From contig CAVSGG010000008.1 in assembly GCA_963727455.1 (NCBI GenBank), positions 64,001 to 128,000 on the forward strand: a stretch of 64,000 bases of DNA, in the 5' to 3' direction. The notes under the pieces were generated by a model, which did no database searches, was not told where the DNA came from, and worked only from the letters and a program-made list of their open reading frames with translations. The DNA is from Candidatus Krumholzibacteriota bacterium (lineage in GTDB: Bacteria > Krumholzibacteriota > Krumholzibacteriia > JAJRXK01). The translations under genes were made by a program, and so were the position numbers. This document shows positions 1-60,250 of the stretch, in pieces (within the stretch, counting starts at the first letter, position 1; every line of letters begins with the position of its first letter).

Positions 1-860
1 CGCAGGACGCGGCGCAACATGCCCAGGCTGTCGGCCTGCACGGTGAAGCTCAGGGGAATGCGTCCGCCTCCTTTGGGCCAAGAGAAGCTGAGAGAATCCG
101 GGCCTGCACCACCCTGCAAGATGGCGCTCGCGTGTCCGGCATTGGCGGATTCCACCACCGCCTCGGCCGTGATTTCGATCTCATCGCCGCGGTAAGCCAC
201 GGTAGGGTAGTGAACACGATCGAGTCGCAGATCTCCGGGACCATTGCTGTCACCAACGGCAATCGTGAATACCGGAACACTGAGACCGCGCAGTGAGGGC
301 AGCTCGGGGTCCGTGCTTCTTCCGTCACTCAGTAGCAGGATCGCCTGCAGGTTGTCCTCCAGGTGAGATTGAGCTGCGGACAAGAGAAGCGCGGGTAGAT
401 TGGTTCCCTCCTTTGAGCCCGTCTGCAGATCACGATGCAGTCGGCGCGATCCCTCCGAGTCGAAAACCTGCGGCTTTTCTCGTCGCCCGGCTAGTTGCCT
501 TTGGGCAAGTTCGGCCAAGCTGCGGGCATCCTGGAGACGCGTCGAACCATCGCGGGACTTCAGTGTCATACTTCCACTGTCGTCCACGAGCGTGAGCACC
601 GACGGCGGAAGCTGCTTGCTGTGACGCGAGAAGAGAACAGGTTCGAGAATCAGGAACAACAAGATGAGAAGTGCGCCAGCGCGCAGAGCACGCAGAATCC
701 AGCGTCGGTTCGCGCTGAGCGAGGGCTGCGTGCGGTAGTAAGCGAGATACGAGACCGCAAGACCGACGAGCAGCAGCAGGACGACCAATGACCAGTCGAA
801 AGCGCCCCTCGGCCAGACACTCAGTTTTGCCAGAGGGAGAGAAAGGGATGAGAGGGTCAC
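1..860 (-). CDS. VWA-domain membrane protein (5' part; runs off the window's left edge)
   Basis: Frame translated by hand, absent from the ORF track. Two N-terminal TM segments (WSLVVLLLLVGLAVSYLAYY...ILRALRAGALLILLFLILEP), MIDAS-type DDSGSM, GTNL, ILLLSDG and PVFTIAVGD. The GTG start at 860 is tentative. Confidence 0.8.
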   Translation of the reverse strand, partial: MTLSSLSLPLAKLSVWPRGAFDWSLVVLLLLVGLAVSYLAYYRTQPSLSANRRWILRALRAGALLILLFLILEPVLFSRHSKQLPPSVLTLVDDSGSMTLKSRDGSTRLQDARSLAELAQRQLAGRREKPQVFDSEGSRRLHRDLQTGSKEGTNLPALLLSAAQSHLEDNLQAILLLSDGRSTDPELPSLRGLSVPVFTIAVGDSNGPGDLRLDRVHYPTVAYRGDEIEITAEAVVESANAGHASAILQGGAGPDSLSFSWPKGGGRIPLSFTVQADSLGMLRRVL

Positions 861-1068
861 CGCGAATCCACTGCTCCGGGAAGGCTCTTGAAAGAGTCGG
901 GGTGCGGGGCTGGCCCGAGGTCCACGCGTGTTCCCCCGCGGCGAGGACGAGAATTATCCGTGGAGGACTTGCTGAATACTCTACATACGATCGGACCGGA
1001 TTCGCCACCCGGAAACAAAAGCGCCGGCGTAGGTAGCCGGCGCTTCGAGGCTCAGGAAGGCAGTTTTC

Positions 1069-1428
1069 TCAAGTCGTTGCTGATGCGCTCACGGCTTCTT
1101 CCACCGTCGCGAAGGCCTCGAGGATGTTCTGGAACTCCAGCAGTTCGAACACTTCGTAGACGTCGGGAACCATACCGACCAAGCGCAGGTCGCCGCCGTT
1201 CTCCCGGATCTCGCGAATGACGCTGATGAAAATACCCCAGCCAGCCGAGGAGATGTAGGAGACCCGGGAAAGGTCCACGATGATCTTGTAGCGCTTCGAC
1301 TGAATCAGGGACTTTATTTCCTTCTCGAATTCGGCCGAGGTGGTCGTGTCGATGTAGCCTGCCACCTCCAGGACCTGCTGATCCGGGCAGGATTCGTGCG
1401 CCTTCGAAATGACCATGATCCCATCCAT
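1069..1428 (-). CDS. STAS-domain anti-sigma factor antagonist (RsbV/SpoIIAA family)
   Basis: GYIDTTT, IIVDLSRVSYISSAGWG with the conserved phospho-acceptor Ser, and VYEVFELL; 119 aa. Confidence 0.93.
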   Translation of the reverse strand: MDGIMVISKAHESCPDQQVLEVAGYIDTTTSAEFEKEIKSLIQSKRYKIIVDLSRVSYISSAGWGIFISVIREIRENGGDLRLVGMVPDVYEVFELLEFQNILEAFATVEEAVSASATT

Positions 1429-1484
1429 CGAAAGCCCGTCTCTTTCTCTACTTGAGCTACTTTAGCAAAGCTGTTGTAGCATAA

Positions 1485-4007
1485 CTAGTTACGTGTTTTT
1501 TCCAATCCGGCGTCTACGGACTCCGTCCCCGCTTCCTGCGACGCCGGCGGTTGCTCTTCATCCGTGTGCAAGCTTCGGTCCAAGCCAAGGCCGTGATCGG
1601 CCCGATTCTCTTCGGGTGCGCCCTCCTGGGGATCCAGGCCCCGGCGCCGCAAATAGAGGCGTCGTTTGGGCTCGTTGCTGAGGTCCAGGCGTACGAGTTC
1701 GTCGTAGACCATCTTGGCATTGGCCTCGTGGCCCCGCTCGCTCAGGCGATCGGCCAGGCGTTTGGCACCCAGACTTGGATCCGTCCGCACGAGCTCGACC
1801 ATCGCCTCGCGCCCCTCGACGGTGAGGCGGCGCAAACCCGCCTGGGAGGCCCGGCCAGCGAGGGCCTCCTCGCCACCCAGCTCGCGCATTCGCCGCCAGC
1901 GGTAGTACGTGGAGACGGAGGTACCATAGGTCCCGCAGGCCTCCTCGATGCTCATCCCCTCGACTTCCACCATGTCCAGTAGGCGTTGTCGCCGCTCGAT
2001 CTCCAACGAGGCCGGTCGTAGCTTCTCCTTCACCGCAACCACCGTGATGTCGTCGTTTTGCGCGTTGCCTCCGGTGAAGGCGGCAATGTCATCATTGAAG
2101 GCAGCAATGAACTCTTCAGCTGTCCGGCCCGCGTTCTTGCGCACGCACTCGATGAGACGCTGCTCGCCGTACTGTTCCCGCGCAGCGTTCATCGCCTCGG
2201 TCACGCCATCGGTGTAGATGAGGAGCAAATCGTCTTGCTGCAGCTGGACCTTCTCCACCTCGATCGTCTTGGAGAACAGCTCTGGATCGGGCAGCGAAAT
2301 TCCTACCGGGAATCCGGCCGGATTCAAGAAGAAGACCTCGTCGGTTTCAATGCGATACAGGAGCATCGGGTTGTGGCCGGCCGAGGAGTAACTGATCACG
2401 CGATTCCGCGAGTCGAGAATGATGTAAAAGAGGGTGATGAACATGCCACGGCGCATGTCCTCGGTGATGAAGGTGTTGACGCGGCTCATTACGTCGCTGG
2501 CCGAGTGATTTCCCCTGGCCTCCATGCGCATGGCGGTGCGGATCATGGTCATCACCAGGCTACCGGGGATTCCTTTCCCCGAGACGTCCGCGACCACGAT
2601 TCCCACTGTGTCCTCGTCCACCGCGAAGAAATCGTAATAGTCGCCGCCGACTTCCGCCGCTGCGCGATACATCGCGGCGATCTCGTATCCGGACAGTTCC
2701 GGCATCGCGGTTGGCAGCAGGGTGTGCTGAATCTCCCGCGCGAGTTGCATTTCCTTTTGGAGGCGTTCCTGCTCGACCAGATGCGATTGCGCATGGCGGA
2801 ACTTGGACGCAATTTCATTGAATGCAGCCGCGATGGTGGAGATCTCCTCGGGGCCGTGCACCTCGATGTTCTGCTCGAGCACCCCGTCACCGATCGCGAG
2901 CACGCCCTCGGTGAGCTGCTGGATGGGACGAACGAAGAGATTCACCATCACGAGGATGAGCAGGATACCCACCAGCAAGATGACCAGTCCGATTCCCATG
3001 GCGTGTAGAAGGGCCGCGCGATATCGCCGCTCCAGGTCCGAGGTCTTCAGTCCCAACACCACCCGTCCCAATTCGACTCTCTTCCCGGAGGGCCCTTGGA
3101 TGCTCACCGGGTAGTTCAGCTGGAGCACCCGTCCTGAGTCGAACTGGATACGCGTCCACGCTCCCGAATTCTCTCCGTGGTCGATGAGTCGACCGGGCTC
3201 GGGGTGCCAGGCGTTGAAGAGATCGTCCAGCACACTATCGGCCCAGATGCTGCCATCGGTGCCGTGCACCACGCGCGCGAAGGCGATGGTGGAATCGTGA
3301 CGCGCGAGTTCAGTGACGCTCTGCTGCAGAAGCGTTCGTTCCACCGAATAGGGATCGCTGCTGGCAAGCACGCTCCTGGACTGCACGGCCAGGTCGCGCG
3401 CGGTCGCCTCGATACGGCTGAGCTCTTGGTCGAAGATCGTCTGCCGTTGGCGATAATGCACGACCGAGAGAGCGAGAATCACCAAGAGCGCCAGACCGAA
3501 GGAGGCGCGTAGGGTGAACCGCATCCTCAAGCTACGGTGAAGAGCGGAGAACTGGATTCCCGGAATCCAGCGGTCGATGGGCGGACGCCGGTCCATGCAC
3601 ATTCGGAGCTCGTTGCTTCCGTCCGTGGTCGTGTAAATCACCTCATCCATGATCCGATTGATGAGGTAGATCCCGAGTCCTCCACGTTTCCCGATCGCCA
3701 CGTAATGGTCCAGGTCCGGTACCGCCACCGAGCCAAAGTCGAAAGACTCGCCGGTGTCCTTCAGGACGATCTCCACCTGACCGGAGAAGTACTTCACCTG
3801 GATGGCGATCTCACCGCCCTGATTGTGATAGGAATGCTGGATGATGTTCGTGCAGGCTTCGTCGACCGCGAGTTTGAAGTTGGCGGTGTCCGCCGGATCG
3901 AATCCGGCCTGCATGCAGATGCGTGCCACGAAATCGCGTACCTGAGCCAGATGACTCTCGCGGGCCTCGATTACGAGCTCCGCCGTCTTGATCCGGCTGC
4001 CGATCAC
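1485..4007 (-). CDS. Membrane partner-switch protein: RsbW-like HATPase + 2 TM/sensor + HAMP + SpoIIE PP2C phosphatase + C-terminal HTH
   Basis: LAVDEACTNIIQHSY, D.G..FD and GGLGIYLI (anti-sigma kinase); VGGDYYD, VADVSGKG, SAGHNP, YTDGVTE and DDITVV (PP2C). The GTG start at 4007 overlaps the upstream stop (GTGA). Confidence 0.9.
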   Translation of the reverse strand: MIGSRIKTAELVIEARESHLAQVRDFVARICMQAGFDPADTANFKLAVDEACTNIIQHSYHNQGGEIAIQVKYFSGQVEIVLKDTGESFDFGSVAVPDLDHYVAIGKRGGLGIYLINRIMDEVIYTTTDGSNELRMCMDRRPPIDRWIPGIQFSALHRSLRMRFTLRASFGLALLVILALSVVHYRQRQTIFDQELSRIEATARDLAVQSRSVLASSDPYSVERTLLQQSVTELARHDSTIAFARVVHGTDGSIWADSVLDDLFNAWHPEPGRLIDHGENSGAWTRIQFDSGRVLQLNYPVSIQGPSGKRVELGRVVLGLKTSDLERRYRAALLHAMGIGLVILLVGILLILVMVNLFVRPIQQLTEGVLAIGDGVLEQNIEVHGPEEISTIAAAFNEIASKFRHAQSHLVEQERLQKEMQLAREIQHTLLPTAMPELSGYEIAAMYRAAAEVGGDYYDFFAVDEDTVGIVVADVSGKGIPGSLVMTMIRTAMRMEARGNHSASDVMSRVNTFITEDMRRGMFITLFYIILDSRNRVISYSSAGHNPMLLYRIETDEVFFLNPAGFPVGISLPDPELFSKTIEVEKVQLQQDDLLLIYTDGVTEAMNAAREQYGEQRLIECVRKNAGRTAEEFIAAFNDDIAAFTGGNAQNDDITVVAVKEKLRPASLEIERRQRLLDMVEVEGMSIEEACGTYGTSVSTYYRWRRMRELGGEEALAGRASQAGLRRLTVEGREAMVELVRTDPSLGAKRLADRLSERGHEANAKMVYDELVRLDLSNEPKRRLYLRRRGLDPQEGAPEENRADHGLGLDRSLHTDEEQPPASQEAGTESVDAGLEKTRN

Positions 4008-6019
4008 TTGGGTCCACCCTCTCGGCCAGTGTCCTGCTCGATGCGTTCGATCCTTGCCTTGGCTTCGGCAATATTGTTTTGGGCGCCCTGGTTTCCAGGA
4101 TCGACCTTGAGAATTTGCTCCCACTGCCGAATCGCCTCTTCGTAGTTGCCCTCGGTGAAGGAACGCAGTCCCGCCAGATAATACTGACGCACCTGCTTCT
4201 CCTCACTCGGACTGAGCCTAGTCGGTCCGGATTTGCGGTGGGCGATCTGATCGAGAAGGGCCAGCGCCTGAGCGTGCTTGGGCTCACGCTTCAGGACCTC
4301 ATGGCACAGCGCTTCAGCTTGGTCCAGTTCACCTTTCGAGAATGCCTCGAGTGCCTGGGTGAAGCGTCGCTCCTGCGCGAGCTCGCCGCGGGCGCGCTCG
4401 GCATCGGCCTGCGCTTGTTCGCTCTCGTGACGCGCAGCATCCAGCTTCGCCTTCCATCGTTTCAGGGCGGCAGCGGGAGCGGGATTCTCCGGATCGAGAG
4501 AGGCCACGACGCTCCAAGCGTTCAGCGCGGATTCCCAATCGCCCGCCTCTTCCGCCGCGGTGGCTTTGGAGGTGGCGGTGGCCATCGCACTGGCCTCGAG
4601 GTCCTCCACCTGCAGGGTGAGTCGCGGCAGCATGGGATAGTCCGCCGCGAGTTCGCTGAGAGCGTTCAGCTCCGCTCGGGCCCTCAATGCGTCATTCTGG
4701 TTCAGAGCGGCCCGAACTTGAGTTTCCGCGTCTTCGATCCGAAGCGCGCGGCGCTGCTCGTCGGCTTTCTGCCTGCCAACGCGCTGCTCCAGATCCTGCA
4801 GGCTTGCCAGCTGGGTCGAGAGAGAGTCGTCGGCCACTCCGAGGCTGCGCGCCCGCGCCAGGCTCCTTTGCGCGTCCGGTAGAGAACCGCGGCTCAGGGC
4901 GTCCTGGAATTCCTGCACCGCGCTCTCAATCTGTGATTTGCGCCAATTCTCCACCGCCTCCATGCGGGCCTGCATCAGCTCTTTGGCCCGCAGCTCGTCG
5001 CGGTGACGGCGACGATCCTTCATGTCCTGGCCGAAGTACCAGGAAAGGCTCAAGAACTGCGAGGAACCCAGTTCTCCGCCCGAGCGAAATGCGTAATCCA
5101 GGGAGTAGTCGCGCCAACGGCCGCCCAAGCCGGCGTTGAAATGACCGTCGTCGTAACTCAGGCGCAGAGTGTAGAGTCCTTCATACTCAGCCTCCGCGCC
5201 CAATCCGAGACGATTGTCGGCGTACTGTGGTTTGTCGTAGACCGCCGCTAACTGGACCGTCGTATTCTCACTGAAATCATACCGCTTGCTGAACGCAAAG
5301 CGTTGGGCATAGGGGAGCTTGTCTTCACGCTCGATCAGGCGGAAGCTCGGGGCGATCAGATTTTGGTATACGAAAGAGACCCGTACCCCCCCGAGACGCG
5401 GAGGAACCCAGGCGAGTCCCAGGTCCATGCCGCCACTGGTGCTCTTCTCGCCCAGATCCAGGCTGTGGATCTTGGCGCTGGTGCCGAGATCGAGTCGGCC
5501 ACCCAGGTAGGGCAGCCTTCCCCCGTATCCATAGCTCAAGAGAAGTTGGGTCTCACCGTAGCTGATGCTTCCGGTGGGTCGACTCGTGCTATCGTAAGTC
5601 TCGATGTCACCCAATTTGAGCCGCAGGATGCCGATACCGAAGCCCCCCGCGTTCAGAGTTGGGTAGGCAAGTCCCAAGTAGCCGTAGGTCGCGCCGCCGT
5701 CGAGACCATAGAGACGGTTGTAACTGAAGGTGAGCTGTGAACCACGCGCATGGGGCAAGAGCGCCGGATTCCAGAAACAGGCGCTCGCATCATCGGCCAG
5801 CCCCACCATGGTTGATCCCAAACCCACTCCGCGCGCAGTCGGACCCAGCTTGAATATGGACTCCGTTCCTCCTCCGTCGCCGGCAGCACTCGCGGAGCTT
5901 GCCGTAAGGAAACAGCCGAGCAGAAGCATCAGAGCGGCTACGCTCAGCGTTCCGCATGCGCTCTTGTGGAGAGAGGAACGCGGCGCGGTGAACTCGGGGA
6001 TGGGGCAGCCGGGCTTCAT
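4004..6019 (-). CDS. PorV-like outer-membrane beta-barrel fused to coiled-coil/TPR C-terminus
   Basis: Signal peptide; ARGVGLG...DDASACFWNPA PorV/FadL-like N-terminal motif; barrel end DYAF...SLSWYF; TPRs (GNYEEAIRQWEQILKVDPGN). ATGA overlap with the upstream gene. Confidence 0.8.
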   Translation of the reverse strand: MKPGCPIPEFTAPRSSLHKSACGTLSVAALMLLLGCFLTASSASAAGDGGGTESIFKLGPTARGVGLGSTMVGLADDASACFWNPALLPHARGSQLTFSYNRLYGLDGGATYGYLGLAYPTLNAGGFGIGILRLKLGDIETYDSTSRPTGSISYGETQLLLSYGYGGRLPYLGGRLDLGTSAKIHSLDLGEKSTSGGMDLGLAWVPPRLGGVRVSFVYQNLIAPSFRLIEREDKLPYAQRFAFSKRYDFSENTTVQLAAVYDKPQYADNRLGLGAEAEYEGLYTLRLSYDDGHFNAGLGGRWRDYSLDYAFRSGGELGSSQFLSLSWYFGQDMKDRRRHRDELRAKELMQARMEAVENWRKSQIESAVQEFQDALSRGSLPDAQRSLARARSLGVADDSLSTQLASLQDLEQRVGRQKADEQRRALRIEDAETQVRAALNQNDALRARAELNALSELAADYPMLPRLTLQVEDLEASAMATATSKATAAEEAGDWESALNAWSVVASLDPENPAPAAALKRWKAKLDAARHESEQAQADAERARGELAQERRFTQALEAFSKGELDQAEALCHEVLKREPKHAQALALLDQIAHRKSGPTRLSPSEEKQVRQYYLAGLRSFTEGNYEEAIRQWEQILKVDPGNQGAQNNIAEAKARIERIEQDTGREGGPK

Positions 6020-9000
6020 CGTGTCACCGCGATTCTAAAGTAGATCTCCCGTCCGGCCGCGCGCACACGGCAGAGGTAGACTCCATTCCGCACCTCTTGA
6101 CCGAGACCGTTTCGCCCGTCCCAGAGCACGTCGCCGTCGTGAATCCCCGGCTCGGTTTCAGGACTGCCGTTGGCAAAACTCCACTGGCGAACTCGCTTTC
6201 CCAAAAGATCGAAGATCTCGATCTCGACCGGGCCGCTCTCGGGAAGCGAATACGAGAGGGTGGCGGGCTGCCGGCTCGGAACGAAGGGATTGGGGTAGCT
6301 ATGTGCATCCAGTTCGGAAGACGCTTTCGCCGTGACACTGTGGCCAGCCAAGATGAGCGAATGGCCGCCTCCCTCTACGTCGAGCAAGGCGTAGCTGAGC
6401 TCAAATCCTCCGGAGTCCAGAATCGAAGCACTACCGCCATCCACCGCGAAACGGAATGAGACGTAGCCCGCGTCGGATTTGGCCTGCGCTCCCACTCGGA
6501 ACGCAGCCGAGGTGTCCGAATCGATGACCAGATCTACAGGAATACTCACCGGATTTCCGCCGACCGTCGCACTCCAGCTTCCCGTGCCGTCGGTACGCCG
6601 CACCTGAATGGTCTGCAAGAAGCTCGAGGGATCGGCGAAAGGCTGTCCTGCGTCGTCGACCAGTGTCAGCTCGAGCTGGGTGAAGTGCACCGCTTCGGGA
6701 TGCCCGTTGCTGAGATGCATTGCCAAGCGCTCGTAGATGCGATCGCTGCCGATCAGCGGGCCCGTGTCGCTCAAATCACTGATCGTGAGCCGCAGAGGGT
6801 CTGCCAGGATCGAGAGCGCGACAGTGCTCTCGGCCGTCGATTCTCCAGCTGCCAGTCCGCTGTTTTCGTCCACCGGGATCTGCTCAGCCGTCAGAGTAAT
6901 CTTCTGCACCCCAAGGTCCAGACTCATGGGACCCTGGACTCTCCACACGAATTGGTCACTGGGATCGGCAAGGTCGACGCTGGCCGGCTGGCCATCGAGA
7001 ATGGTGAAACCGGAGGGCACCGAAAGGTGAAGACGCGCCGGTCCCAGAACCTGGGCGCTGCCACTGAGCGCGAAATCTCCGCGAAGCTCGACGACCGCTC
7101 CCGGCGGTAGTTCGCCTCGATCGCGCGCGCTGTTGGGCTCGAGAATCGCGAGACGGGGAACCGCATGCGCAGCTTCCACGATGTCCAGAGCCGAACTCGC
7201 ACAGGTGTCCGCCAACACACTGCCACTCTGCACGTCGGTGGCGTGAGCCACCGTGCGCAGCAGGAGGCCGGAAACCGGCGTGCTCGAACAGAGCAGCTGC
7301 CAACTCACCGTCGTCTGTCCAGGCACCATCTCTTGACGCGCATTCCCGCCAACGAGCGCCAACTGTGGCGGCAAGAGCAACTCGAGGGAGCGCTGCTGCA
7401 AATTCGCCGGCCCGTCCACTTCCCCTTGCAGGGTGAAGGTCTGCCCCGTGCTCAAGACCGTATCCTGAGCCCCCTGGGGTGAGAGAATGCTCAAGCCGCA
7501 GGAGTTGAAGGAGACTCCGCCAAACACCTCGACTTGCAGGGTTTGGCTGGACGCCGTGGTGAGCGGCCGCGCATCGGGATCGTTGACGTCCAGGTCCACC
7601 CGCGACAGCTCCGCCACCAGCTCGGCGGTCTGGGCCGTCGCAGGAGCCACGAGTTGAATGGTGGCTTGGGGATTGGAGGGATCGAGCTGGACTGGGAGAG
7701 TGCTCTGGGAGTCCAGAGTAAAACCCTGCAAACTGCTGAAATCGACCTGGACGGGCAACCAGGATCCCGATTCCTGTAGGGAGTTGTTCTCATCCAGAGC
7801 GAAACGGACCGAAATGACCTGGCCTGGCGATACGGACATGGTGAGGGGATCGAGGCTGTCCACGAGTTCGGCGTTGAAGCTGAGAGAGACCGGCTGTTGA
7901 ACCTGAAGATTCGCGAGATCGTCCAGGGGAGTCTGCGGAATGATTTCCTGCTGGGTGGTGGATGACAGAGCGCGCACGATGGAAACGCGCAGCGATTCGG
8001 GACCCGGAGATGTCGTGACGGTCGTATCGAAGTAGAGGGTATCGACTTCACTGGATTGCAGTCGTGGAATCAAGATATCCGCCGCGCTCGAAGCGGGTAC
8101 TGCGCTCCCGCCGAGACGCACGGTCAGCGAATCGATGGCCTCGCCGGCGTTGTTACCCACGACCACTCGCACCGGAATGAGCTGGCCGGTGTTCACCTGG
8201 GTGAGAGGGGCGCTCGGATTTAGAGCTACGGTGGAGAGAATGCGCAATCCGGCCGGGTCGAAGAGCGAGAGCGTTCCGTCGGGTAGGGCCAGATCGGTGC
8301 TGAATGGCAGACCATTCTGCGTACCCCGCACTTGGAGGTATCCCTGCGGAGTGCCCAGTGCCAGATCCGAGGGTAGGCTCAGGGGGGAGAAAGCGAGTTG
8401 GGTGCTGCCGGTGGTCAGTTTCGACGGCCCAAGAGGATCCAGTACGGCCCCGATTCTCGTCCCCTGAGGCTCACCGAAGTTGAAGCGCGTCGCGAGGGGA
8501 TCGAGGACGATCTCCGCCTCTCCCTGGTTCTGCAGAGAGAGCTTGAACGCGACCGTCGATCCACGCAACGCCGAGGCCGGTTCGAGAGGAGTCGGTACAA
8601 GCGCGAGATTGGCCGGGGTTTCGGTGGTGATCGCGCCTGCTCCGATGAGATCCGCGGAGAAAGCAAAGCTGTTCTCGGTGCCCTCCAAGTGCAGTTGAAG
8701 ATCCTGACTTCGACTCCCTAAAGCCGCGTCAACGGGCGTGGGGCCAAAGCTGAGTTCCGCTTCCTGGCCGGGCGCGAGAGCGAGAGATGTGGTCAACGCG
8801 CCGCTCCAGAGCCCGCCTCCGAAGCTCGCAAGGGAAGTCGCCGGGTTCAGAGAGACCGTGGCGCCGCCGTTGTTCTTGACCCGCGCCTTCAACAGCAGAT
8901 CGGCTCCGTAGTGGATTCGGGAGGGACTCACGCTGCCGTCCACGAACTCGAGCTGTGAGGCCGCACTTACCAACAGCGGAGTAGCCGATGAGTCCGGTGG

Positions 9001-12000
9001 AGCCGTGAAATCGGCCCCCGCCACCGTCCCCGTGACGCGCGCTATGAAGCGGTATGTTCCAGGTGGAGTGGCAGTGCCCACTCTGACTCGCGAGCTCAAA
9101 TCATTCTGACCCCCGGCTGCGACCGTTCCGAGGGGATCCTGATCGACCAGTGTGAAGTCCGCCGGCGGTGAAGACTGCAGCGCGAGTTGCGAAATTCCGA
9201 TCGGACCCGCACCGAGGTTCTCCACCGTAACGCGAAGATTGAGAGTATCTCCGGGTACCGCCTGGGTTTCGTGAGCCACCGAGCGGATGACCAAGGCGCT
9301 GACCAGAAACGAGCCTTGAGGAAGCACGATGAAGCTCGTAACGGCTTGACCATGGATGTCCTGTCCGGCCAGTTGCAGCGTGGGTCGAAAAGAGCCCAGA
9401 GCGAAACTGGCGGGGAGGGTCGCCGTGCCGAAGCTGAGGGTTCGGCTCGACGAAGCCGGCACAGTCGTATCGCTGAGCAGGGAAGCGCTAAGGATTCCCC
9501 CCTGTCCGTCCTCGATCCTCAGCTGCGAGAGACCGGCGTCCAGAATCGCGTCGACGCCACCTTTGTTTTGGAGGGAGATGGTGAAGTTGAGATCCTGACC
9601 CGGCACCGCGGCCGCGGGAGCAAGAGTGCCGTCGATTGCAAGCGCTGCTGGCGCTGCAAAGATCGCATTCGCACTACCAGTTGCGGCTGCACTCGCGAAA
9701 CTGACGGTGACCGTGCCGGCAGTGAGAGGTGATGCCAGCCGGAGGTCCACCATTCCCGACTCGTCGCTCGCTCTCTGGACTCCGCTGCGCTGAAGATCGA
9801 AATCGTCGGAGATGATCCCACCCCCGGTCGCGCTCACGTCCACCGAAGTCCCCGTTGCCACCACGTTTCCGAATGCATCGCGAATCGGCCCCGCACTCAG
9901 GCGCGTCACCGAGAGCCCGTTTGCCGTGTTCTCGCTTGGATCCACCAGGGGCACTGGAATCGTTCCCGAAGCCGACGCGGGAACCACCAGAAGATTGTTC
10001 AGGCTGCCCGTGACGGCGGGAAGGGAGGCAAGGCTCACATCCACGGTCAAAGGTCCGGCCTGCAGAGCACTCAGTTCCACCGTGGCCTTTCCCGCCACCA
10101 GGGAAGCCGGCGAAGGCGTAACGCCTACCCCAGACGGTGTCGAATTGAAGACGAGCTGACCCGTCAGGTCCACAACGTTGCCGGCGGAGTCCTTGGCGAT
10201 GATCGTGAGGGTGTTCGGGTCTCCCGCGGTAAAGAGGGTATCGCTGATCGCGAGTTCGAGATGGTCCGCGGAACCGGGCAGAGCCTGCACCGTCCAACGA
10301 GCGGTCTCCAGCGCAGCGGGGTTGCCGTCCAGGATCGAAGCGCGCACCCGATGGTCTCCGCTGGTCGCCGAGAGATGAAGGTCGAAAGACAATTCCCCGT
10401 TGCTGTCGGTCGAAGCAAGACCGTCGTCCGGGGGTGCGGTGGGGTCTTCCAGGCTTGCGCCTGCGGGGGAAGCCAAGAGACTCAAGTGAACGGGAACCCC
10501 ACTCACCGCGTTGCCGTAGGCGTCGACGACACGCGCGAGGAGTGAGACCGTCGTTCCGGCGGGCGCGCTCTGGAGCGTGTCCCCTACAGCCCTAAGCTGG
10601 AAGGCAGTGCCGGACGCCACGCTGATCAAGGGACTCTGGGCGTTGATCGAGGGTTGTGATTTCAGACTGGCAGTGATGGAGAACTGCTCCACCAGCGTGT
10701 CCCGCGCGCTGGCCGAGAGAAGGCCCGCGTTCAGCGCTCCTTCGTCGGGAGTCAGGACCACTCCAGACCCGGTGGAGCTCAGCATTATGGAGTCCGCGGC
10801 CGCCAACACCTGGTTGCCTGCGGCATCGAGGGCAGTGATCGCAAGCGGGAGGTTCTGCCCCGCAGTCACATTCGTCTGCGAGGGGAACACACTGAGCGAG
10901 GCGATGGGACCAGCCACGGTCTGCACCACGAAAAGAACCGTCTCCCGTCCCACGGGATTTCCATCCAGGATTCCCACACGCAGACGCAGGGTTTGCACCG
11001 TCGAGTCCGTGAGGACCGTGAAGGTGGCCTGGCCGTTGCCGTCGCTGACGGTCGGGCCGACTTGGATCACTCCCCCCTCCAAGGACAAAACGTTCAACGC
11101 CTCGTTGCCTACCGCATTGCCGAAGGCGTCCAGTACCTGCACTCCGAGGTTGACGCTCGAGCCTGAAGTCACACCGGACAATGTATCCGCGCTCGTGCTC
11201 GCGAGTTCGTAGGCGCTGGCCGGGCCCACCGTCAAAGGCGGTCCCACGTACCCTTTCCCGTCCGCACTGAGCCGGATTCTGTAACTCCCAGAGGTATCAA
11301 TGCGTTGCAGAGAGGTCGAAAAAGTGCCCCGGGTAAGTTGGCCCTCACTGACCATGAGCGGGAGCGAAACCACCGTGGTGGTGTCCGCGCCATCGACGAG
11401 ATCGAAAGAGAAGCTATCGAGAGCGGCGCTCGCCACATTTCCGAAGGCATCGTACGCAGTTGCGCTCAAGCTGAAGGGCGTTCCCGCTGTCACGATCGCG
11501 GGATAGGCGAGCTGATAGTCGGCCACCATCGAGTTCGCCAGGATTTGTAGGCTCCCGCTATCTCCGTCCAGGAACGCCGCTGAATCGTCCGCGGTCAAAG
11601 CGTGAGTTCCGGCCACACTTCCCTGGTAATAGACCGTAGCCTGACCGTTGACCGGGAGGTTCAGTGTATCGAGGTACGGTCCGCCGCTCTGCGCAGAAAA
11701 GGCGAGACCGGTCGAGGGATCGGCGTGCACGATGACGGTAGCGGAGTTGGTGAAACTCGTATTGGAAAAGCTGTCCACCAGTGCCAGACCGAAGCTGCCC
11801 TCGACTCCCGCCTCGATGCCGCCCGTGGGCAGAGCGAGTTCAATCGCGCTCGCGCTTCCCACCACCGAGGTGTAGACGAGATCTTGAACCGCGGCTGAGG
11901 GAACTTGACTCGAGCTCGCGTCCAGAACGTCCTGGCGACCCGCCGCCGAAGGTGCGTGGTACATCACGTGGATTTGTCCGTCGACATCGGTCAGTCCACG

Positions 12001-14568
12001 CTGTGAAGCCAATCCGAGAGAATCCGTCTCTCCCACTCCGGAAAGTACCCCGTCGAGCAGGTCGCTGGAAAACACGGTGACCTCGACGCCAGCCACCGGG
12101 TTTCCGTAAGTGTCGGTGGCCAGGGCCGCGACCAGTTCCGAGCCGCCCACCACGAGATCGCGCGCGCCGTTGGGTTGCAGGACGAGTGAAACGGTCTGTC
12201 CGGCGGTAGCGACGGCGTTGAAGTTCAAGGGCGACGCGAAGGAAGTCTCCGCCGAGAGACTCTGTGGACCGGCCACCGTGCCCAATTCCCACAGATCACA
12301 GCTCGCGTAGCCCAGTGAATCACTGAGAGCTGCACTCTGATCACCCGGAGCGAGGGGATCCGTGTCGACACGTCCACCGTCGGTCGGAAGGAACTGGACG
12401 GAAGCGCCACTCACGGGATTGCCAAAGGCATCCAGCACGCGCGTTCTAAGCGCCAGCGCTAGGGCAGTTCCCACCGTGGCGCTCTGTCCGTCTCCCGAAA
12501 TCTCTTGCAGAACACTCGCGGGAGCGGCAAGAAACTCAAGATCCACCTCAGCTGAAGCCGATCCGTCACTGAGAGTGACACTCAGATCTTCCGCCAAGGT
12601 GTTCGTCAGCTGGAGCTCGACTCTTCCCGAGTCGGCCGGAGCGAAGACGTAGTCCGCCTCACCGGAGGGCAGAAGGCTCAGACTGCCAGCGCCGTTGCTC
12701 GCCCAGCTCAGATTGCTCCCGTCACCGATACTCGTGCTTGAAAGATGCATCGTGCCGCCGTAGCCGCTCACGCGGTTTCCCGATACATCCAGCGCATCCA
12801 CCTGAATAGCCAGGGCTGCACCCGCTGTTCCGACATTTCCCGCCGGAAGGTTCACCGTGAAATGGTCGAGCGGTCCGGGCACGAATTCCAAGTTCCGTTG
12901 GGGCCCCACCAATAGACCATCGAGGCTTGCCTGCGCAGTTCCCGCGCCGGCTGCAGTGGAACGCAGGCGCGCATGAAACTCTCCCAACGCATCACTGCTC
13001 GCGTCCAACTTGTCGAGCTGCCACGCAGCGGAGAGCGTGAAACCGATGCGGCTCGAGTCGATCCCCGCCACAGGATTCCCGAACGCGTCTTTCAGGCCCA
13101 ATAACAAGTCGATGGTATCGACTCCGTCTGCGACCGCGGATGCGTTGGCGGAGAGCGAGGTGGCAGAAGAATCCACGGCAGAGGCGGTGAATACGGCGAG
13201 GGGTTGGGCGCTGAGCGCCGCACCGCCGGCCGTTACGCTCACTGGCCTGGTGCCAGCGGTCGTCGAACGAAGCCGTGCCGCGAAAGTACCGTCCGTCGCG
13301 CTCGATCCACTCAGCTTCTCCACCGCGACCGCGCTGGCGCTGATCACGATCTGCGCGCTGTCCACCCCGGCCACGGCATTGTCGAAGGCATCTCGCAGAG
13401 TCGTCTGCAGAGTCGTGAAATCCGTACCATCCGCCAGCGCCGGCCCGCTGACCACGGCTGAGGAATGGTCGGGGTCCACGGGTCCCGCGCGGAAATCGAT
13501 GTCAAGAGTATCACTCAGTGCCACTCCACCTACGGTAACGGCGAGGCGACGTGAGGACGCGACAGTGGTGCGCAAGAGGGTCGTAAACGAGCCATCCAGG
13601 GCCGAACTTGCCGCCAATTTTTCCACGGACAGTCCATCTCCCAGTACCGTGAAGACAATTGCGGACGAGTCCACGCCCGAAACCGCGAGTCCTCCACCGT
13701 CGCGTAGAACGAGGTCCACCTGGATTGCATCCACACCGTCCGCTACTGCGCCCGGGCCGCCACTCAGGCTTGATTGTGTCGAGTCGATCGCTCGCGGCGT
13801 GAATTCGATCACTGGGTGATCGCTGAGCGTCGTTCCATCCACTGCCGCGTCCAGACTCCAAGAACCAGCCAGAAGCGTTCTGACCCGCAGGGGGAAGCTG
13901 CCCTCGGCTGCACTCGCCGCCGACGGCTTCTCCACCGTGAAAGCGGAAGCTGACAACGCGGCTGAAATTCGCGCACTGTCCACTCCTGCAATCGTGTTCC
14001 CAAAGGAGTCGCGCAGGACCAAAGTGACCGAGCTGAACGCGCTTCCGTCGGCCACAACCGGTGAAGTTGAACTCACCGAGCTCTGCTGTGAATCCACTGC
14101 AGCGGGAATCAAGGTGATCGAGGCCTGGTCGTAGCCCAAATCCGGAGAGCTGGTCGATCCATCGACCACCGTGAGTCCAACGGGAAGCGAAGTGACGTGG
14201 GTGGCGCGATACAGGAGATCCACTCCGGAGGAATCGGCGGCGATGCTGGCCGAACTCACCGCGGGCCCTCCCACGAAGCGATAGTAACTTCCGGAGGAAT
14301 TGTCGCTGAAGAGGTCGATTACCTGCGCAGCGGATACGGGCGAAGGATCGCCGGAGACATCCACACTGGAGACCCGAATGGGCAAGTACTCCCCCGCGAT
14401 GGCCGTGTCCGAGGCGGCCTGGATCACCAGGGCTGAGGGGGGTTGCACGGCCAGGGCCGTCCGAGGCAATAGCAGGCAGATGCACGCCGCGCTGAGGAGC
14501 AGGGAAACCCGTCCCAGTTGAGCGAGACGTTCGTGAATGCGCGTGAGTGGTCCCGGCATAGTGTTCAT
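6016..14568 (-). CDS. Giant (2850 aa) Ig-like/invasin (Big_1-type) repeat surface protein with C-terminal T9SS/FlgD-like sorting domain
   Basis: Signal peptide; many D.(F/Y)GN.V Big_1-type motifs; C-terminal YPNPF...IFDLLGKRVR...WDGRN...NGVYLCRV. Confidence 0.85.
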   Translation of the reverse strand: MNTMPGPLTRIHERLAQLGRVSLLLSAACICLLLPRTALAVQPPSALVIQAASDTAIAGEYLPIRVSSVDVSGDPSPVSAAQVIDLFSDNSSGSYYRFVGGPAVSSASIAADSSGVDLLYRATHVTSLPVGLTVVDGSTSSPDLGYDQASITLIPAAVDSQQSSVSSTSPVVADGSAFSSVTLVLRDSFGNTIAGVDSARISAALSASAFTVEKPSAASAAEGSFPLRVRTLLAGSWSLDAAVDGTTLSDHPVIEFTPRAIDSTQSSLSGGPGAVADGVDAIQVDLVLRDGGGLAVSGVDSSAIVFTVLGDGLSVEKLAASSALDGSFTTLLRTTVASSRRLAVTVGGVALSDTLDIDFRAGPVDPDHSSAVVSGPALADGTDFTTLQTTLRDAFDNAVAGVDSAQIVISASAVAVEKLSGSSATDGTFAARLRSTTAGTRPVSVTAGGAALSAQPLAVFTASAVDSSATSLSANASAVADGVDTIDLLLGLKDAFGNPVAGIDSSRIGFTLSAAWQLDKLDASSDALGEFHARLRSTAAGAGTAQASLDGLLVGPQRNLEFVPGPLDHFTVNLPAGNVGTAGAALAIQVDALDVSGNRVSGYGGTMHLSSTSIGDGSNLSWASNGAGSLSLLPSGEADYVFAPADSGRVELQLTNTLAEDLSVTLSDGSASAEVDLEFLAAPASVLQEISGDGQSATVGTALALALRTRVLDAFGNPVSGASVQFLPTDGGRVDTDPLAPGDQSAALSDSLGYASCDLWELGTVAGPQSLSAETSFASPLNFNAVATAGQTVSLVLQPNGARDLVVGGSELVAALATDTYGNPVAGVEVTVFSSDLLDGVLSGVGETDSLGLASQRGLTDVDGQIHVMYHAPSAAGRQDVLDASSSQVPSAAVQDLVYTSVVGSASAIELALPTGGIEAGVEGSFGLALVDSFSNTSFTNSATVIVHADPSTGLAFSAQSGGPYLDTLNLPVNGQATVYYQGSVAGTHALTADDSAAFLDGDSGSLQILANSMVADYQLAYPAIVTAGTPFSLSATAYDAFGNVASAALDSFSFDLVDGADTTTVVSLPLMVSEGQLTRGTFSTSLQRIDTSGSYRIRLSADGKGYVGPPLTVGPASAYELASTSADTLSGVTSGSSVNLGVQVLDAFGNAVGNEALNVLSLEGGVIQVGPTVSDGNGQATFTVLTDSTVQTLRLRVGILDGNPVGRETVLFVVQTVAGPIASLSVFPSQTNVTAGQNLPLAITALDAAGNQVLAAADSIMLSSTGSGVVLTPDEGALNAGLLSASARDTLVEQFSITASLKSQPSINAQSPLISVASGTAFQLRAVGDTLQSAPAGTTVSLLARVVDAYGNAVSGVPVHLSLLASPAGASLEDPTAPPDDGLASTDSNGELSFDLHLSATSGDHRVRASILDGNPAALETARWTVQALPGSADHLELAISDTLFTAGDPNTLTIIAKDSAGNVVDLTGQLVFNSTPSGVGVTPSPASLVAGKATVELSALQAGPLTVDVSLASLPAVTGSLNNLLVVPASASGTIPVPLVDPSENTANGLSVTRLSAGPIRDAFGNVVATGTSVDVSATGGGIISDDFDLQRSGVQRASDESGMVDLRLASPLTAGTVTVSFASAAATGSANAIFAAPAALAIDGTLAPAAAVPGQDLNFTISLQNKGGVDAILDAGLSQLRIEDGQGGILSASLLSDTTVPASSSRTLSFGTATLPASFALGSFRPTLQLAGQDIHGQAVTSFIVLPQGSFLVSALVIRSVAHETQAVPGDTLNLRVTVENLGAGPIGISQLALQSSPPADFTLVDQDPLGTVAAGGQNDLSSRVRVGTATPPGTYRFIARVTGTVAGADFTAPPDSSATPLLVSAASQLEFVDGSVSPSRIHYGADLLLKARVKNNGGATVSLNPATSLASFGGGLWSGALTTSLALAPGQEAELSFGPTPVDAALGSRSQDLQLHLEGTENSFAFSADLIGAGAITTETPANLALVPTPLEPASALRGSTVAFKLSLQNQGEAEIVLDPLATRFNFGEPQGTRIGAVLDPLGPSKLTTGSTQLAFSPLSLPSDLALGTPQGYLQVRGTQNGLPFSTDLALPDGTLSLFDPAGLRILSTVALNPSAPLTQVNTGQLIPVRVVVGNNAGEAIDSLTVRLGGSAVPASSAADILIPRLQSSEVDTLYFDTTVTTSPGPESLRVSIVRALSSTTQQEIIPQTPLDDLANLQVQQPVSLSFNAELVDSLDPLTMSVSPGQVISVRFALDENNSLQESGSWLPVQVDFSSLQGFTLDSQSTLPVQLDPSNPQATIQLVAPATAQTAELVAELSRVDLDVNDPDARPLTTASSQTLQVEVFGGVSFNSCGLSILSPQGAQDTVLSTGQTFTLQGEVDGPANLQQRSLELLLPPQLALVGGNARQEMVPGQTTVSWQLLCSSTPVSGLLLRTVAHATDVQSGSVLADTCASSALDIVEAAHAVPRLAILEPNSARDRGELPPGAVVELRGDFALSGSAQVLGPARLHLSVPSGFTILDGQPASVDLADPSDQFVWRVQGPMSLDLGVQKITLTAEQIPVDENSGLAAGESTAESTVALSILADPLRLTISDLSDTGPLIGSDRIYERLAMHLSNGHPEAVHFTQLELTLVDDAGQPFADPSSFLQTIQVRRTDGTGSWSATVGGNPVSIPVDLVIDSDTSAAFRVGAQAKSDAGYVSFRFAVDGGSASILDSGGFELSYALLDVEGGGHSLILAGHSVTAKASSELDAHSYPNPFVPSRQPATLSYSLPESGPVEIEIFDLLGKRVRQWSFANGSPETEPGIHDGDVLWDGRNGLGQEVRNGVYLCRVRAAGREIYFRIAVTR
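12875..14105 (-). repeat. Four tandem ~102-aa diverged invasin/Big_1 repeats within the giant protein
   Basis: Repeated unit VDS..SS......ADG.....L.L(R/K)D.FGN..AGVDS..I......VEKL...S..DG.F...LR.T.AG. Boundaries approximate. Confidence 0.8.
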
Positions 14569-14604
14569 CGCAACCCAAGTGTCTGTGGATCAAGAACTTG
14601 GAAA

Positions 14605-14619
14605 GCAATGACCGTGCCC
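14605..14619 (-). promoter_or_regulatory. Sigma54 (-24/-12) promoter for the giant-protein operon
   Basis: Minus-strand GGGCACGGTCATTGC(T) versus consensus TGGCACGN4TTGC, with exact GG-N10-GC spacing, ~36 nt upstream of the ATG at 14568. Confidence 0.75.
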
Positions 14620-14770
14620 GGAGCGCGGGAGGTGGAAACAGAATGTCAGGGGGTCTTCCAAGGGGCTCAGGCAAGGGAATCTGTACGATCCTCGGCCGCC
14701 GGCGCACAGGAACCGGCCGGCCCCGTCCCCAAAGGAGAGGGTCCTGGGACCAAAGCGGCGCAGCGGGTTC

Positions 14771-15295
14771 TCAAGATGCGTCTTGGCTGCCCAGCTCGTC
14801 CAGTTTGCGCATCCCCTCGAGCATCAGATAGTCGAGACTGACGTCGAGCAGGATGTCTTCGTTCTCGGGGTAGATCTGAGAGTAGAAGGCGAAGGTGCCT
14901 TCCTCGATCGTCACCAGTTGAAAGACGATTTCCTCGATCTGACTGCGCACGGCTTCTTTGAGCTGCTGGTCGGTGATCGAGCCCACCTCGACCAGGATGG
15001 TACCGATCCTCTTACCGCCGGCCAGCCCCGCCTTCATTTTGGCGCCTTCCAGTTGGGAGCGCTCCAGCAGCCCGCTGCGCACCAGGTAATCGCCCAGGCG
15101 TTCGGTCCGGGCATCCGTGCGCGCGTAGATCAATCGTCCCTGGTGGAAATAGACGCGGGCCCGTTGCTGCGAGCCGTGAAGCACCAGCTTCCCGGTGGCC
15201 TGCGCAAGGTGCAGGAGCTGAAAGATGTTCGCCACACCGAAGAGTTCGATTCGGCCCCGCAGATCCAAGATTCTCTCCCCCTGAACACGGCTCAA
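14771..15295 (-). CDS. DUF4388 (PatA-N-like) domain protein
   Basis: LRGRIELFGVANIFQLL...TGKL...VYFHQGRLIYA, RLGDYLV, RIGTILV, EGTFAF and LMLEGMRKLDE. Start uncertain. Confidence 0.85.
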   Translation of the reverse strand: MSRVQGERILDLRGRIELFGVANIFQLLHLAQATGKLVLHGSQQRARVYFHQGRLIYARTDARTERLGDYLVRSGLLERSQLEGAKMKAGLAGGKRIGTILVEVGSITDQQLKEAVRSQIEEIVFQLVTIEEGTFAFYSQIYPENEDILLDVSLDYLMLEGMRKLDELGSQDAS

Positions 15296-15331
15296 ATCCG
15301 CCCAGGATGGCGGACTTTGGACCGCCTTCGC

Positions 15332-20584: not shown

Positions 20585-20603
20585 CGATCCATCTTCCTCG
20601 GGT

Positions 20604-22943: not shown

Positions 22944-23029
22944 TGCACCCCTCCCGCACTGGGCAGGCATGATCGTTTCTGGGGGGTCGGGATTCGTTTT
23001 CGCGAGATATCGAGGCCTCCGCTCGACGC

Positions 23030-49448: not shown

Positions 49449-49540
49449 GAGGCTCCCCCAGGGATTCGAATCGCGCCCGCGGCGCGGATTGGAGAATTGA
49501 GTATACAGCTCCCACAGAGACCTTGGCAAAGACCAGCGTC

Positions 49541-60172: not shown

Positions 60173-60250
60173 GGCATCCCTTGGGCGAGAAGGGTTCAAC
60201 TAGAGATACCGCTTTGGGAAAAAAGCGAGCTTCCTCGACTTCGATTTGTG

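Follow-up and report, generated by a model that had tools for sequence, protein, structure and literature searches.

Introduction

How bacteria with a type IX secretion system (T9SS) sense the proteins that they place on their surface is largely open, and the sole worked case, PorA-PorY, comes from one oral pathogen. In Porphyromonas gingivalis, the C-terminal sorting domain (CTD) of the T9SS cargo PorA is described as binding the sensor kinase PorY in the periplasm and activating PorXY-SigP, and the same account has PorA binding PorV as well (PMC12152298). Here we analyze an operon in a 64,000-nucleotide (nt) stretch of DNA, called the window throughout (positions 64,001 to 128,000, forward strand, of contig CAVSGG010000008.1, assembly GCA_963727455.1, Candidatus Krumholzibacteriota bacterium). 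The operon encodes a giant surface protein ending in a type A CTD, an outer-membrane barrel of the PorV/PorQ family with a long tail of tetratricopeptide repeats (the PorV-TPR protein), an inner-membrane receptor that carries a serine kinase, a periplasmic sensor, a phosphatase and a helix-turn-helix (HTH) on one chain, and a STAS protein. This cassette is real, conserved and undescribed as a unit, and is a variant of trans-envelope signalling built from T9SS and Rsb parts, for which we infer the mechanism set out below.

The likeness to PorA-PorY would lie in a type A CTD cargo serving as periplasmic ligand of an inner-membrane sensor and so linking secretion or display to transcription. The genes of the P. 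gingivalis system are however scattered, its PorV has no TPR tail, and its output is a histidine kinase, a response regulator and an extracytoplasmic function (ECF) sigma factor; here cargo, barrel and sensor are in one operon, the barrel has a 336-aa tail, and kinase, phosphatase and HTH are fused into a partner switch that, with a STAS protein, makes up the output.

Membrane PP2C partner switches are known in SiaABCD of Pseudomonas aeruginosa (PMC7647112, PMC8457831) and in RsbU/RsbW/RsbV of Chlamydia (PMC4552016). In these, as presumably here, a small switch protein is acted on by a membrane-anchored HAMP-PP2C phosphatase and by a serine/threonine kinase that opposes it, and it changes partner once they have set its phosphorylation. 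The SiaA model NF038263 matches receptor residues 335-659 (E 1.3e-19), far below its equivalog cutoff of 700, and in one Ignavibacteria relative (L007 in the survey below) a GGDEF protein comes after the STAS gene, as with SiaD. The differences are that kinase and phosphatase are fused here on either side of a membrane-spanning sensor, that an HTH is added, that three STAS domains are also fused in most relatives of the window receptor, and that the module is wired to a T9SS cargo/barrel pair. Partner-switch enzymes also share one polypeptide in Rv1364c of Mycobacterium tuberculosis (PDB 3ke6), a single chain in which, we assume, sensor, phosphatase, kinase and antagonist follow in that order; Rv1364c is cytoplasmic, has a PAS sensor and another domain order, and is without membrane segment, Cache domain, HTH or secretion link.

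Classical cell-surface signalling is that of FecA-FecR-FecI, in which, as in the Rcs and Cpx systems, an outer-membrane component reports the envelope state to an inner-membrane transducer by periplasmic protein contact, a route that the present operon may share. Its parts all belong to other families: there is no TonB-dependent transducer, FecR-type anti-sigma factor, ECF sigma factor or lipoprotein sensor, and domain scans of the four operon proteins found none of the first three families. An earlier reading of this DNA from its letters alone (the sequence-only reading) had proposed an analogy to cell-surface signalling made from T9SS and Rsb parts; the parts named are there, the resemblance to Fec-type signalling is one of logic, and Fec-type families are missing from the four proteins. 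The outer-membrane sensors NlpE (NlpE-CpxA) and RcsF (RcsF-IgaA-Rcs) are among the cases discussed in PMC12152298. For type B CTD proteins, cognate PorP/SprF-like barrels are described as encoded next door (PMC9143113). As far as that description goes, our operon resembles them in having a cargo-specific outer-membrane barrel encoded right after its CTD protein, and differs in the type A CTD, in the PorV/PorQ-family barrel with a periplasmic extension, and in the signalling attached.

In none of the systems compared do a tailed PorV-family barrel, a Cache receptor and a fused kinase-phosphatase-HTH protein occur together. Searches of full-text literature found nothing that joins PorV with partner-switching, type IX secretion with SpoIIE and STAS, or Krumholzibacteriota with type IX secretion, and looser searches found no paper on such a cassette. 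The operon is a compact candidate for surface sensing, with cargo, dedicated barrel, periplasmic connector, receptor and switch encoded together and conserved over several uncultured phyla. A natural swap of the output, partner switch against histidine kinase, pinpoints the input module and so makes the relay hypothesis directly testable. The kinase-sensor-phosphatase-HTH chain enlarges the known architectures of partner switching, and the cassette suggests that PorV-family barrels do more than shuttle cargo.

Operon structure and conservation

The open reading frames (ORFs) and their translations place all four genes on the minus strand, co-oriented as the sequence-only reading had them: the giant surface-protein gene at 6016-14568 (2850 aa), the PorV-TPR gene at 4004-6019 (671 aa), the receptor gene at 1485-4007 (840 aa) and the STAS gene at 1069-1428 (119 aa). 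The receptor reading frame is open to 4124; its GTG at 4007 is the start used in database homologues and in an identical 840-aa entry. Direct reading confirms both of the 4-nt overlaps that had been claimed, ATGA at 6016-6019 between the giant and PorV-TPR genes (...ACACGATGAAGC) and GTGA at 4004-4007 between the PorV-TPR and receptor genes (...CCCAAGTGATCGG), and 56 nt separate the receptor and STAS genes. Because of these overlaps, a sigma54-type element in front and a terminator behind, the four genes of the window look like a single transcription unit, 1013-14619.

For a survey of synteny, 75 loci were retrieved from species-representative genomes with a PorV-TPR protein profile, and their ORFs were searched with the window domains as seeds (tblastn, phmmer). 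In 14 of the 75 (L001, L002, L004-L012 and L014-L016) the PorV-TPR gene stands directly before a gene for an RsbW/sCache/HAMP/PP2C/HTH protein; we call these partner-switch cassettes class A. Their lineage labels are Krumholzibacteriia, Latescibacterota, Ignavibacteria and KSB1, so that the order cargo, PorV-TPR, kinase/phosphatase, for which the sequence-only reading had suggested a synteny check, proves to be linked over four named lineages. Wherever a long homologous tail and readable downstream DNA occur together, the next gene encodes an sCache/HAMP membrane sensor (17/17 loci), and in 13 of these 17 the two genes overlap or lie at most 30 nt apart. On the upstream side, class A is counted with L003, which nests inside it on the barrel tree; where its upstream DNA could be read (13 loci), a CTD protein is encoded just before the barrel in 12, its end lying 66-222 nt ahead of the first barrel residue in the alignment. 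Over all 75 loci, a CTD protein ends <500 nt upstream of the barrel in 31. The receptor is the cassette protein with the highest identity across phyla in class A (38-49%); that of PorV-TPR is 24-31%.

The window and L001, its closest genome representative (giant protein 51% identical), have the minimal form with one free STAS gene. Most relatives (L002, L004, L009 and L014; e.g. 11866-19374 in L004) encode a receptor of ~1400-1490 aa with three STAS domains fused, followed by a ParA/MinD-like ATPase, a TPR protein, two free STAS genes and a membrane protein with a von Willebrand factor A (vWA)-like motif. In the Ignavibacteria locus L007 a ParA-like ATPase gene comes next, then STAS, the GGDEF protein and Wza/Wzz-type polysaccharide export genes. 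When the window was searched for the ParA-like, TPR, extra STAS, GGDEF and Wza genes of these longer cassettes, only the single STAS gene was found.

One input module with two outputs

In three further loci, of class B, the PorV-TPR protein has a ~337-aa tail and is preceded by an Ig-repeat protein of ~1000 aa that ends in a type A CTD. Two of them, L019 and L051, are labelled Elusimicrobia or Endomicrobiales, and the other, L033, Clostridia. The gene that follows PorV-TPR in all three, and the barrel gene in a fourth locus (L017), encodes an sCache_3_2-HAMP-HisKA-HATPase histidine kinase, and in L019, L033 and L051 a hybrid kinase comes after it. The periplasmic domains of the two receptor types are homologous (hhalign probability 96.7%, E 4.3e-10, 119 columns) in a comparison from which the transmembrane (TM) helices and HAMP were excluded. 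As controls, the corresponding loops of two other kinds of inner-membrane protein encoded beside PorV, the FliG-like and ExbB-like ones described at the end, gave 0.1-0.4%. The cargo bodies are unrelated between the partner-switch and the histidine-kinase cassettes, and the CTD is the only cargo part that they have in common. Common to both classes are the CTD, the tailed barrel and the sCache-HAMP input. That this input was kept while the output was swapped argues for functional coupling in the periplasm.

The tails themselves are all homologous TPR arrays (hhalign 98.5-99.6%) in class A, class B and the FliG-linked cassettes described at the end (class C), and do not discriminate among the classes. 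The window also holds a second cargo/barrel pair (48519-53083, minus strand), which has no TPR tail and no sensor gene following.

The surface protein

The giant protein begins with a signal peptide, seen by hydropathy scan and inspection as a hydrophobic segment at residues 15-33 followed by ALA-VQP. The domain scan found eight Big_1 domains, six Invasin_D3 stretches and CARDB-type repeats. Its last 105 aa (6019-6333, minus strand) form a T9SS type A CTD that reaches the cutoff (23) of TIGR04183 with 23.1 bits in the whole protein and 28.7 bits when scored alone, and its description as a surface Ig-repeat cargo with a sorting domain is thereby borne out. Among the CTDs of the cassettes, 13/16 are at or above this cutoff, and those of L007, L011 and L051 are just below.

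The C-terminal half of the giant protein is conserved in relatives, and the CTD more so than the rest: across phyla, identity is 35-44% among class A CTDs and ~25% in the cargo body. Scored against class A cargo CTDs of other phyla, the giant-protein CTD reaches 55-84 bits, and against the two other CTDs of its own window 26-37 bits; class B CTDs score 28-35 bits against those of class A.

The barrel and its TPR tail

The PorV-TPR protein has a signal peptide, an outer-membrane barrel (residues 46-335 of 671; 5015-5884, minus strand) and a TPR tail of ~336 aa (residues 336-671; 4007-5014, minus strand), in which profiles match TPR arrays at ~359-646. Its naming as PorV stands at the level of the family and not of the protein. 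The barrel reaches the PorV/PorQ subfamily model NF033709 marginally (91.5 against a cutoff of 90, residues 56-327) and falls well short of the equivalog models for PorV (NF033710, 18.6 against 250) and PorQ (NF033711, 52.9 against 220); Pfam PF19572 (PorV) matches 0/10 members of the barrel family at E<=0.01. In the ESM Atlas model of a 56% identical homologue (P0006), the structural neighbours of the barrel are PorV/PorQ clusters (TM by row 0.78-0.81). Judged from these matches, the barrel is a PorV/PorQ-family paralogue.

Conservation along the tail is uneven. Identity is 0.28 at its start and 0.53 in its last TPR (~aa 601-660), which is as conserved as the barrel; the most conserved peptide is [QE]W[EQ][KRQ]ILx[IV]DP. 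The C-terminus of the barrel is placed in the periplasm because PorV-family barrels are naturally fused there to peptidoglycan-binding OmpA domains, in L040 and in one Atlas neighbour. As to other tails in the family, the L040 protein (9995-11728) carries OmpA_C, and that of L031 (9962-13726) carries ~930 aa of TPR repeats.

Neither PorV-TPR nor the receptor is rare in itself. An exhaustive profile search with PorV-TPR gave 1232 cluster representatives at E<=1e-30, and ~120 of the 150 listed (of 1232) are 560-730 aa long. The 13 matches of a word-index search were set aside as an artefact of sensitivity in view of these 1232 representatives. Database names in these families are generic ('anti-sigma factor antagonist', 'SpoIIE family protein phosphatase', 'TPR repeat protein').

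The receptor and the STAS protein

The receptor was foreseen as a membrane kinase/phosphatase, and domains for both activities are present; they sit on one polypeptide, which also carries an HTH that had been missed. The chain opens with a cytoplasmic RsbW-type serine kinase domain (residues 13-137; 3597-3971, minus strand; HATPase_c_2, E 2.7e-28) that matches RsbW in PDB 6m36_A. Between TM1 (165-183) and TM2 (341-359) lies an sCache_3-like sensor of ~157 aa (2988-3458, minus strand), recognized from the TM segments and profile comparison, and a HAMP domain follows (residues 354-400; 2808-2948, minus strand; E 3.8e-9), which is found in 25/25 family members. Next come a PP2C phosphatase of the SpoIIE/RsbU type (residues 464-660; 2028-2618, minus strand; SpoIIE, E 7.2e-49), with PDB matches to Rv1364c (3ke6, E 1.1e-14), 3es2 and 6k4e, and a bipartite HTH (HTH_23/28/32; residues 668-759; 1731-2006, minus strand) with a DNA-binding fold of the IS481/IS630-transposase type. 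The HTH is present in 24 of the 25 receptor-family members, with S697, T700, Y701, Y702 and R703 conserved. Weak matches to Sigma70_r4_2 occur in the HTH region of 7/25 members (best E 5e-4), which prompts the idea that, by analogy, the fused RsbW domain might act on the HTH in the way that anti-sigma factors act on sigma region 4.

Within the receptor, conservation is lowest in the periplasmic domain (identity 0.31, against 0.71 for PP2C). PF17203 (sCache_3_2) matches 13 of the 25 family members, and does not match the window protein at E<=0.01; a PDB sequence search with the sensor domain gave 0 matches at E<=10. A search with the sensor region alone gave 3 matches, and is uninformative on other outputs. 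Since the receptor lacks a signal peptide and has RsbW ahead of TM1 and HAMP behind TM2, the loop (184-340) is predicted to be periplasmic. The inner-membrane sensor with periplasmic loop and HAMP is thus as anticipated, and the order of TM segments and HAMP in the receptor, together with the OmpA-fused barrels, predicts the TPR tail and the sensor loop to be in the same compartment, the periplasm.

The STAS protein is a homologue of anti-sigma-factor antagonists and scores 68.3 against a TIGR00377 cutoff of 53.45. Its S61 is the predicted phospho-acceptor, as 'YISSAG' aligns with 'YMDSAG' of TM1442. In the receptor, kinase residues N54, D84, G86 and the G106-G112 block (N/G boxes) are invariant in 25 sequences, as are D456, D474, D600, D652 and D653 of PP2C, which we take to be the metal ligands. 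With the kinase boxes, the PP2C aspartates and the acceptor serine intact, the switch is predicted to be competent. Candidate targets of the switch are the receptor's own HTH; in relatives, the ParA-like ATPase and the TPR protein; and in L007, the GGDEF protein. The nearest gene of the sigma-70 family in the window is 30 kb off, at 44527-45393.

Promoter, leader and terminator

A sigma54-type -24/-12 element, GGGCACGGTCATTGCT, lies at 14604-14619 (minus strand), 35 nt before the ATG of the giant gene and inside a ~200-nt intergenic gap. It is one mismatch from TGGCACN5TTGCW, with GG and GC at canonical spacing. The number of such motifs in the window is within chance (1.41 matches expected per window; 40/100 shuffles gave >=2); what lifts this one above chance is its position upstream of the ATG and its conservation together with the leader in L001. 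There the element is identical (918-933) and the next ~25 nt almost unchanged, and the other intergenic DNA aligns poorly. Directly after the -12 element comes a 20-nt leader or operator-like block, TTCCAAGTTCTTGATCCACA (14584-14603, minus strand), which contains a CAAGnnCTTG palindrome, overlaps the expected transcription start, is unique within the window, and has one difference from L001 between diverged flanks. An operator function is conceivable, perhaps with the receptor's HTH as the binding protein.

The claim that the operon is sigma54-driven holds for the window and L001, by element, position and conservation, and does not extend to the cassette generally. The Ignavibacteria loci L007 and L011 have a TTGACA-N17-TATCAT promoter in place of the sigma54 element, and in the KSB1 locus L015 no such site occurs. 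Among the other 18 class A and B loci, most of which lack the start of the cargo gene, no operon-strand sigma54 motif was found except in L001. Sigma54 control thus appears, from these comparisons, to be local to the sub-clade of the window and L001. Two genes for sigma54 activators lie elsewhere in the window (57080-60199 and 60759-62123), neither of them adjoining the operon, and there is no rpoN within the 64 kb. A sigma-70 promoter scan and an Rfam scan of window positions 1-16000 returned 0 sites and 0 families, respectively.

At the other end, an intrinsic terminator that the sequence-only reading did not mention lies at 1013-1044 (minus strand). It consists of an 11-bp GC-rich hairpin, AGCGCCGGC-TACCTAC-GCCGGCGCU, then the U-tract UUUGUUU. 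A terminator scan missed this hairpin, which came to light on direct inspection of the letters; its folding energy is -25.2 kcal/mol (z -3.42), and 0/200 shuffles were as stable.

A model of signalling and its alternatives

We propose a relay across the envelope, in which the state of cargo and barrel would be read by the sensor by way of the tail, and give this model about an even chance of being right. The giant Ig-repeat protein would be exported by a T9SS-type route through its type A CTD, and a PorV/PorQ-family barrel dedicated to it would then handle or hold it at the outer membrane; the barrel's ~336-aa TPR superhelix would hang into the periplasm. There the receptor's sCache_3-like domain may read the state of cargo and barrel; the signal might be occupancy of the barrel, load on the surface protein or failed export. 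The likeliest route to the sensor would be contact with the terminal TPR, since this repeat is as conserved as the barrel and is the only part of the tail kept in L017. HAMP would pass the signal on and shift the balance of kinase and phosphatase on the one polypeptide. The RsbW-type kinase would phosphorylate Ser61 of the STAS protein and the PP2C phosphatase would take the phosphate off. Unphosphorylated STAS would then switch partners. The output is probably transcriptional, and might be exerted by the HTH at the receptor's C-terminus or by some factor that the kinase domain holds. The inward direction of this signalling, and the choice of TPR tail or cargo CTD as ligand, are likewise our proposals.

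Several observations weigh against such a relay. L003 has PorV-TPR without a giant CTD protein upstream, where the genes are on the other strand. The sensor kinase of L017 adjoins a barrel with a 94-aa tail that holds the terminal TPR only, so most of the tail is not needed for a barrel and a sensor to be adjacent. The kinase/phosphatase family is large (a database search with the receptor gave 1649 matches among 7999 scored, the best 120 all below 1e-220), and adjacency was surveyed from the PorV-TPR side. The operon encodes no sigma factor or other output partner. Its control elements are not general: the cargo genes of L007, L011 and L015 have no sigma54 motif in front of them, and the terminator is not kept in L001. 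Lastly, a barrel tree (IQ-TREE, 46 rows, loci with a phmmer barrel-seed match of <=200 aa excluded) places class A together with class C, the FliG-linked one (95/86), and sets class B apart on a branch of 100/99. Classes A and B had been expected as sister groups, which is not what the tree gives. The tail-plus-sensor arrangement therefore does not simply follow the descent of the barrels, and on the topology of the tree would be either old and often lost, or moved between barrel lineages.

The genes could instead be co-regulated without any relay, the sCache domain binding a small environmental ligand and the switch controlling the adhesin operon or other genes, while PorV-TPR would be the adhesin's export or anchoring factor with a tail that docks to the secretion machinery or the cell wall. 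Cache domains are described as the largest family of extracellular small-molecule sensors (PMC4822843), and since sCache domains usually bind small molecules this also counts against the relay. PorV-family tails unconnected with sensors do exist (OmpA_C in L040, 930 aa of TPR in L031), L017 has a sensor with almost no tail, and the conserved palindromic leader near the promoter would suit autoregulation by the HTH. What co-regulation leaves unexplained is that one lineage of sensor domains stays with PorV-TPR while the output is exchanged, and that tail-less PorV pairs, such as the second pair of the window and the barrel-only loci, are also sensor-less; the low identity of the periplasmic domain moreover suits co-evolution with a protein partner no less than it suits a fixed metabolite pocket. 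We consider co-regulation alone somewhat unlikely. An arrangement closer to PorA-PorY, in which the sCache domain would bind the giant protein's CTD on its way through the periplasm or stalled there, has a precedent in the binding of PorA to both PorY, with activation of the cascade, and PorV, as described in PMC12152298. PorV-TPR would here be a sink that removes the CTD, and the switch would report an export back-log and not surface contact. The CTD is indeed the sole cargo part common to partner-switch and histidine-kinase cassettes, and is a distinct subtype, conserved across phyla well beyond the cargo body. Yet class B CTDs are distant from those of class A though the sensor domains are homologous, and the long conserved TPR tail would have no explanation, and we regard a CTD ligand as distinctly unlikely.

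That the four genes are merely adjacent, with the Rsb-type module serving an unrelated stress response, is hardly credible. A sigma54 motif within chance, if taken alone, and the common and mobile nature of partner-switch modules would allow it, but it is contradicted by conserved synteny: the order is kept in 14 loci of four named lineages with genes overlapping or closely spaced, a parallel histidine-kinase version exists, and the promoter/leader block is conserved.

The relay may also be one case of something wider. Tailed PorV/PorQ-family barrels might be a general platform for trans-envelope coupling in FCB-group and Elusimicrobia-type bacteria. Each barrel would be dedicated to one CTD-bearing surface protein, and the next gene would encode its cognate in the inner membrane, a protein in which two TM helices flank a periplasmic loop of ~150-170 aa, this partner being a partner-switch receptor, a histidine kinase, a FliF/FliG-like protein or an ExbB/ExbD-type motor. 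For the window, the giant adhesin would then be a tethered mechanical or contact probe, with load read as STAS phosphorylation, and the HTH an intramolecular target held by the RsbW domain and released by STAS to act at the conserved leader. Taken jointly, these suppositions are rather unlikely all to be true.

Neighbouring genes and other barrel cassettes

Directly upstream of the operon (14771-15295, minus strand) is a gene for a DUF4388 protein with an MshE-like c-di-GMP-binding motif, 87% identical in L001 as against 51% for the giant protein; pyruvate phosphate dikinase is also encoded upstream. The DUF4388 protein, and the GGDEF and polysaccharide-export genes after STAS in L007, hint at a biofilm or c-di-GMP context for the operon. 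Downstream of STAS, the membrane protein with the vWA-like motif ('VDxSxSM'; 3-860, minus strand) is cut by the window edge. It is kept after the STAS gene or genes in L001 (15054-17294), L004, L009 and L014, where it has ~720-750 aa, two N-terminal TM helices, a weak GATase1_like match and a TM helix at its C-terminus; L001 has no terminator between STAS and this gene.

Regarding the T9SS of this organism, SprA/Sov, PorK/L/M/N and PorU were not seen within the 64-kb window, and indirect support comes from the two other CTD proteins and second PorV-family gene that it holds. The second cargo (49541-53083) is an M6-like metalloprotease that has FG-GAP repeats and ends in a type A CTD. Its barrel scores 146 bits with NF033709 over aa 249-524 of ORF 48519-50099, the true start of which is probably near 49540. 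The third T9SS-type cargo (18164-20947, minus strand) is a 927-aa BNR/sortilin-like, glycosyl-hydrolase-like protein with a C-terminus that matches PorZ and PorU CTDs; the ORFs after it, 20604-23033 and 23030-25261, have no family match.

Two other kinds of barrel cassette appeared among the 75 loci. The FliG-type cassettes (class C) are Elusimicrobia-type loci (L018, L020-L023, L025, L026, L032, L036, L042, L043 and L062; e.g. 9459-19055 in L023) and encode, in order, a small CTD protein, PorV with a ~210-236-aa TPR tail, an inner-membrane protein and a protein of 1200-1850 aa. The inner-membrane protein has a TM helix, a ~170-aa loop, a second TM helix, FliG_M/FliG_C/MgtE_N-like domains and TPR, with a YscJ_FliF_C match in L026. 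In KSB1 loci L047 (2193-14372), L053 and L065, the genes for two CTD proteins lead into one for a PorV-like protein of 695-735 aa, which has a C-terminal extension without a Pfam match. A MotA/ExbB-like protein, with a loop of ~170 aa, and an ExbD homologue come next, which suggests PorV-family barrels coupled to an ion-driven motor. The loops of the FliG-like and ExbB-like proteins were considered as the same sensor domain and ruled out (hhalign 0.1-0.4%); that of the FliG-type protein is not homologous to the Cache sensor.

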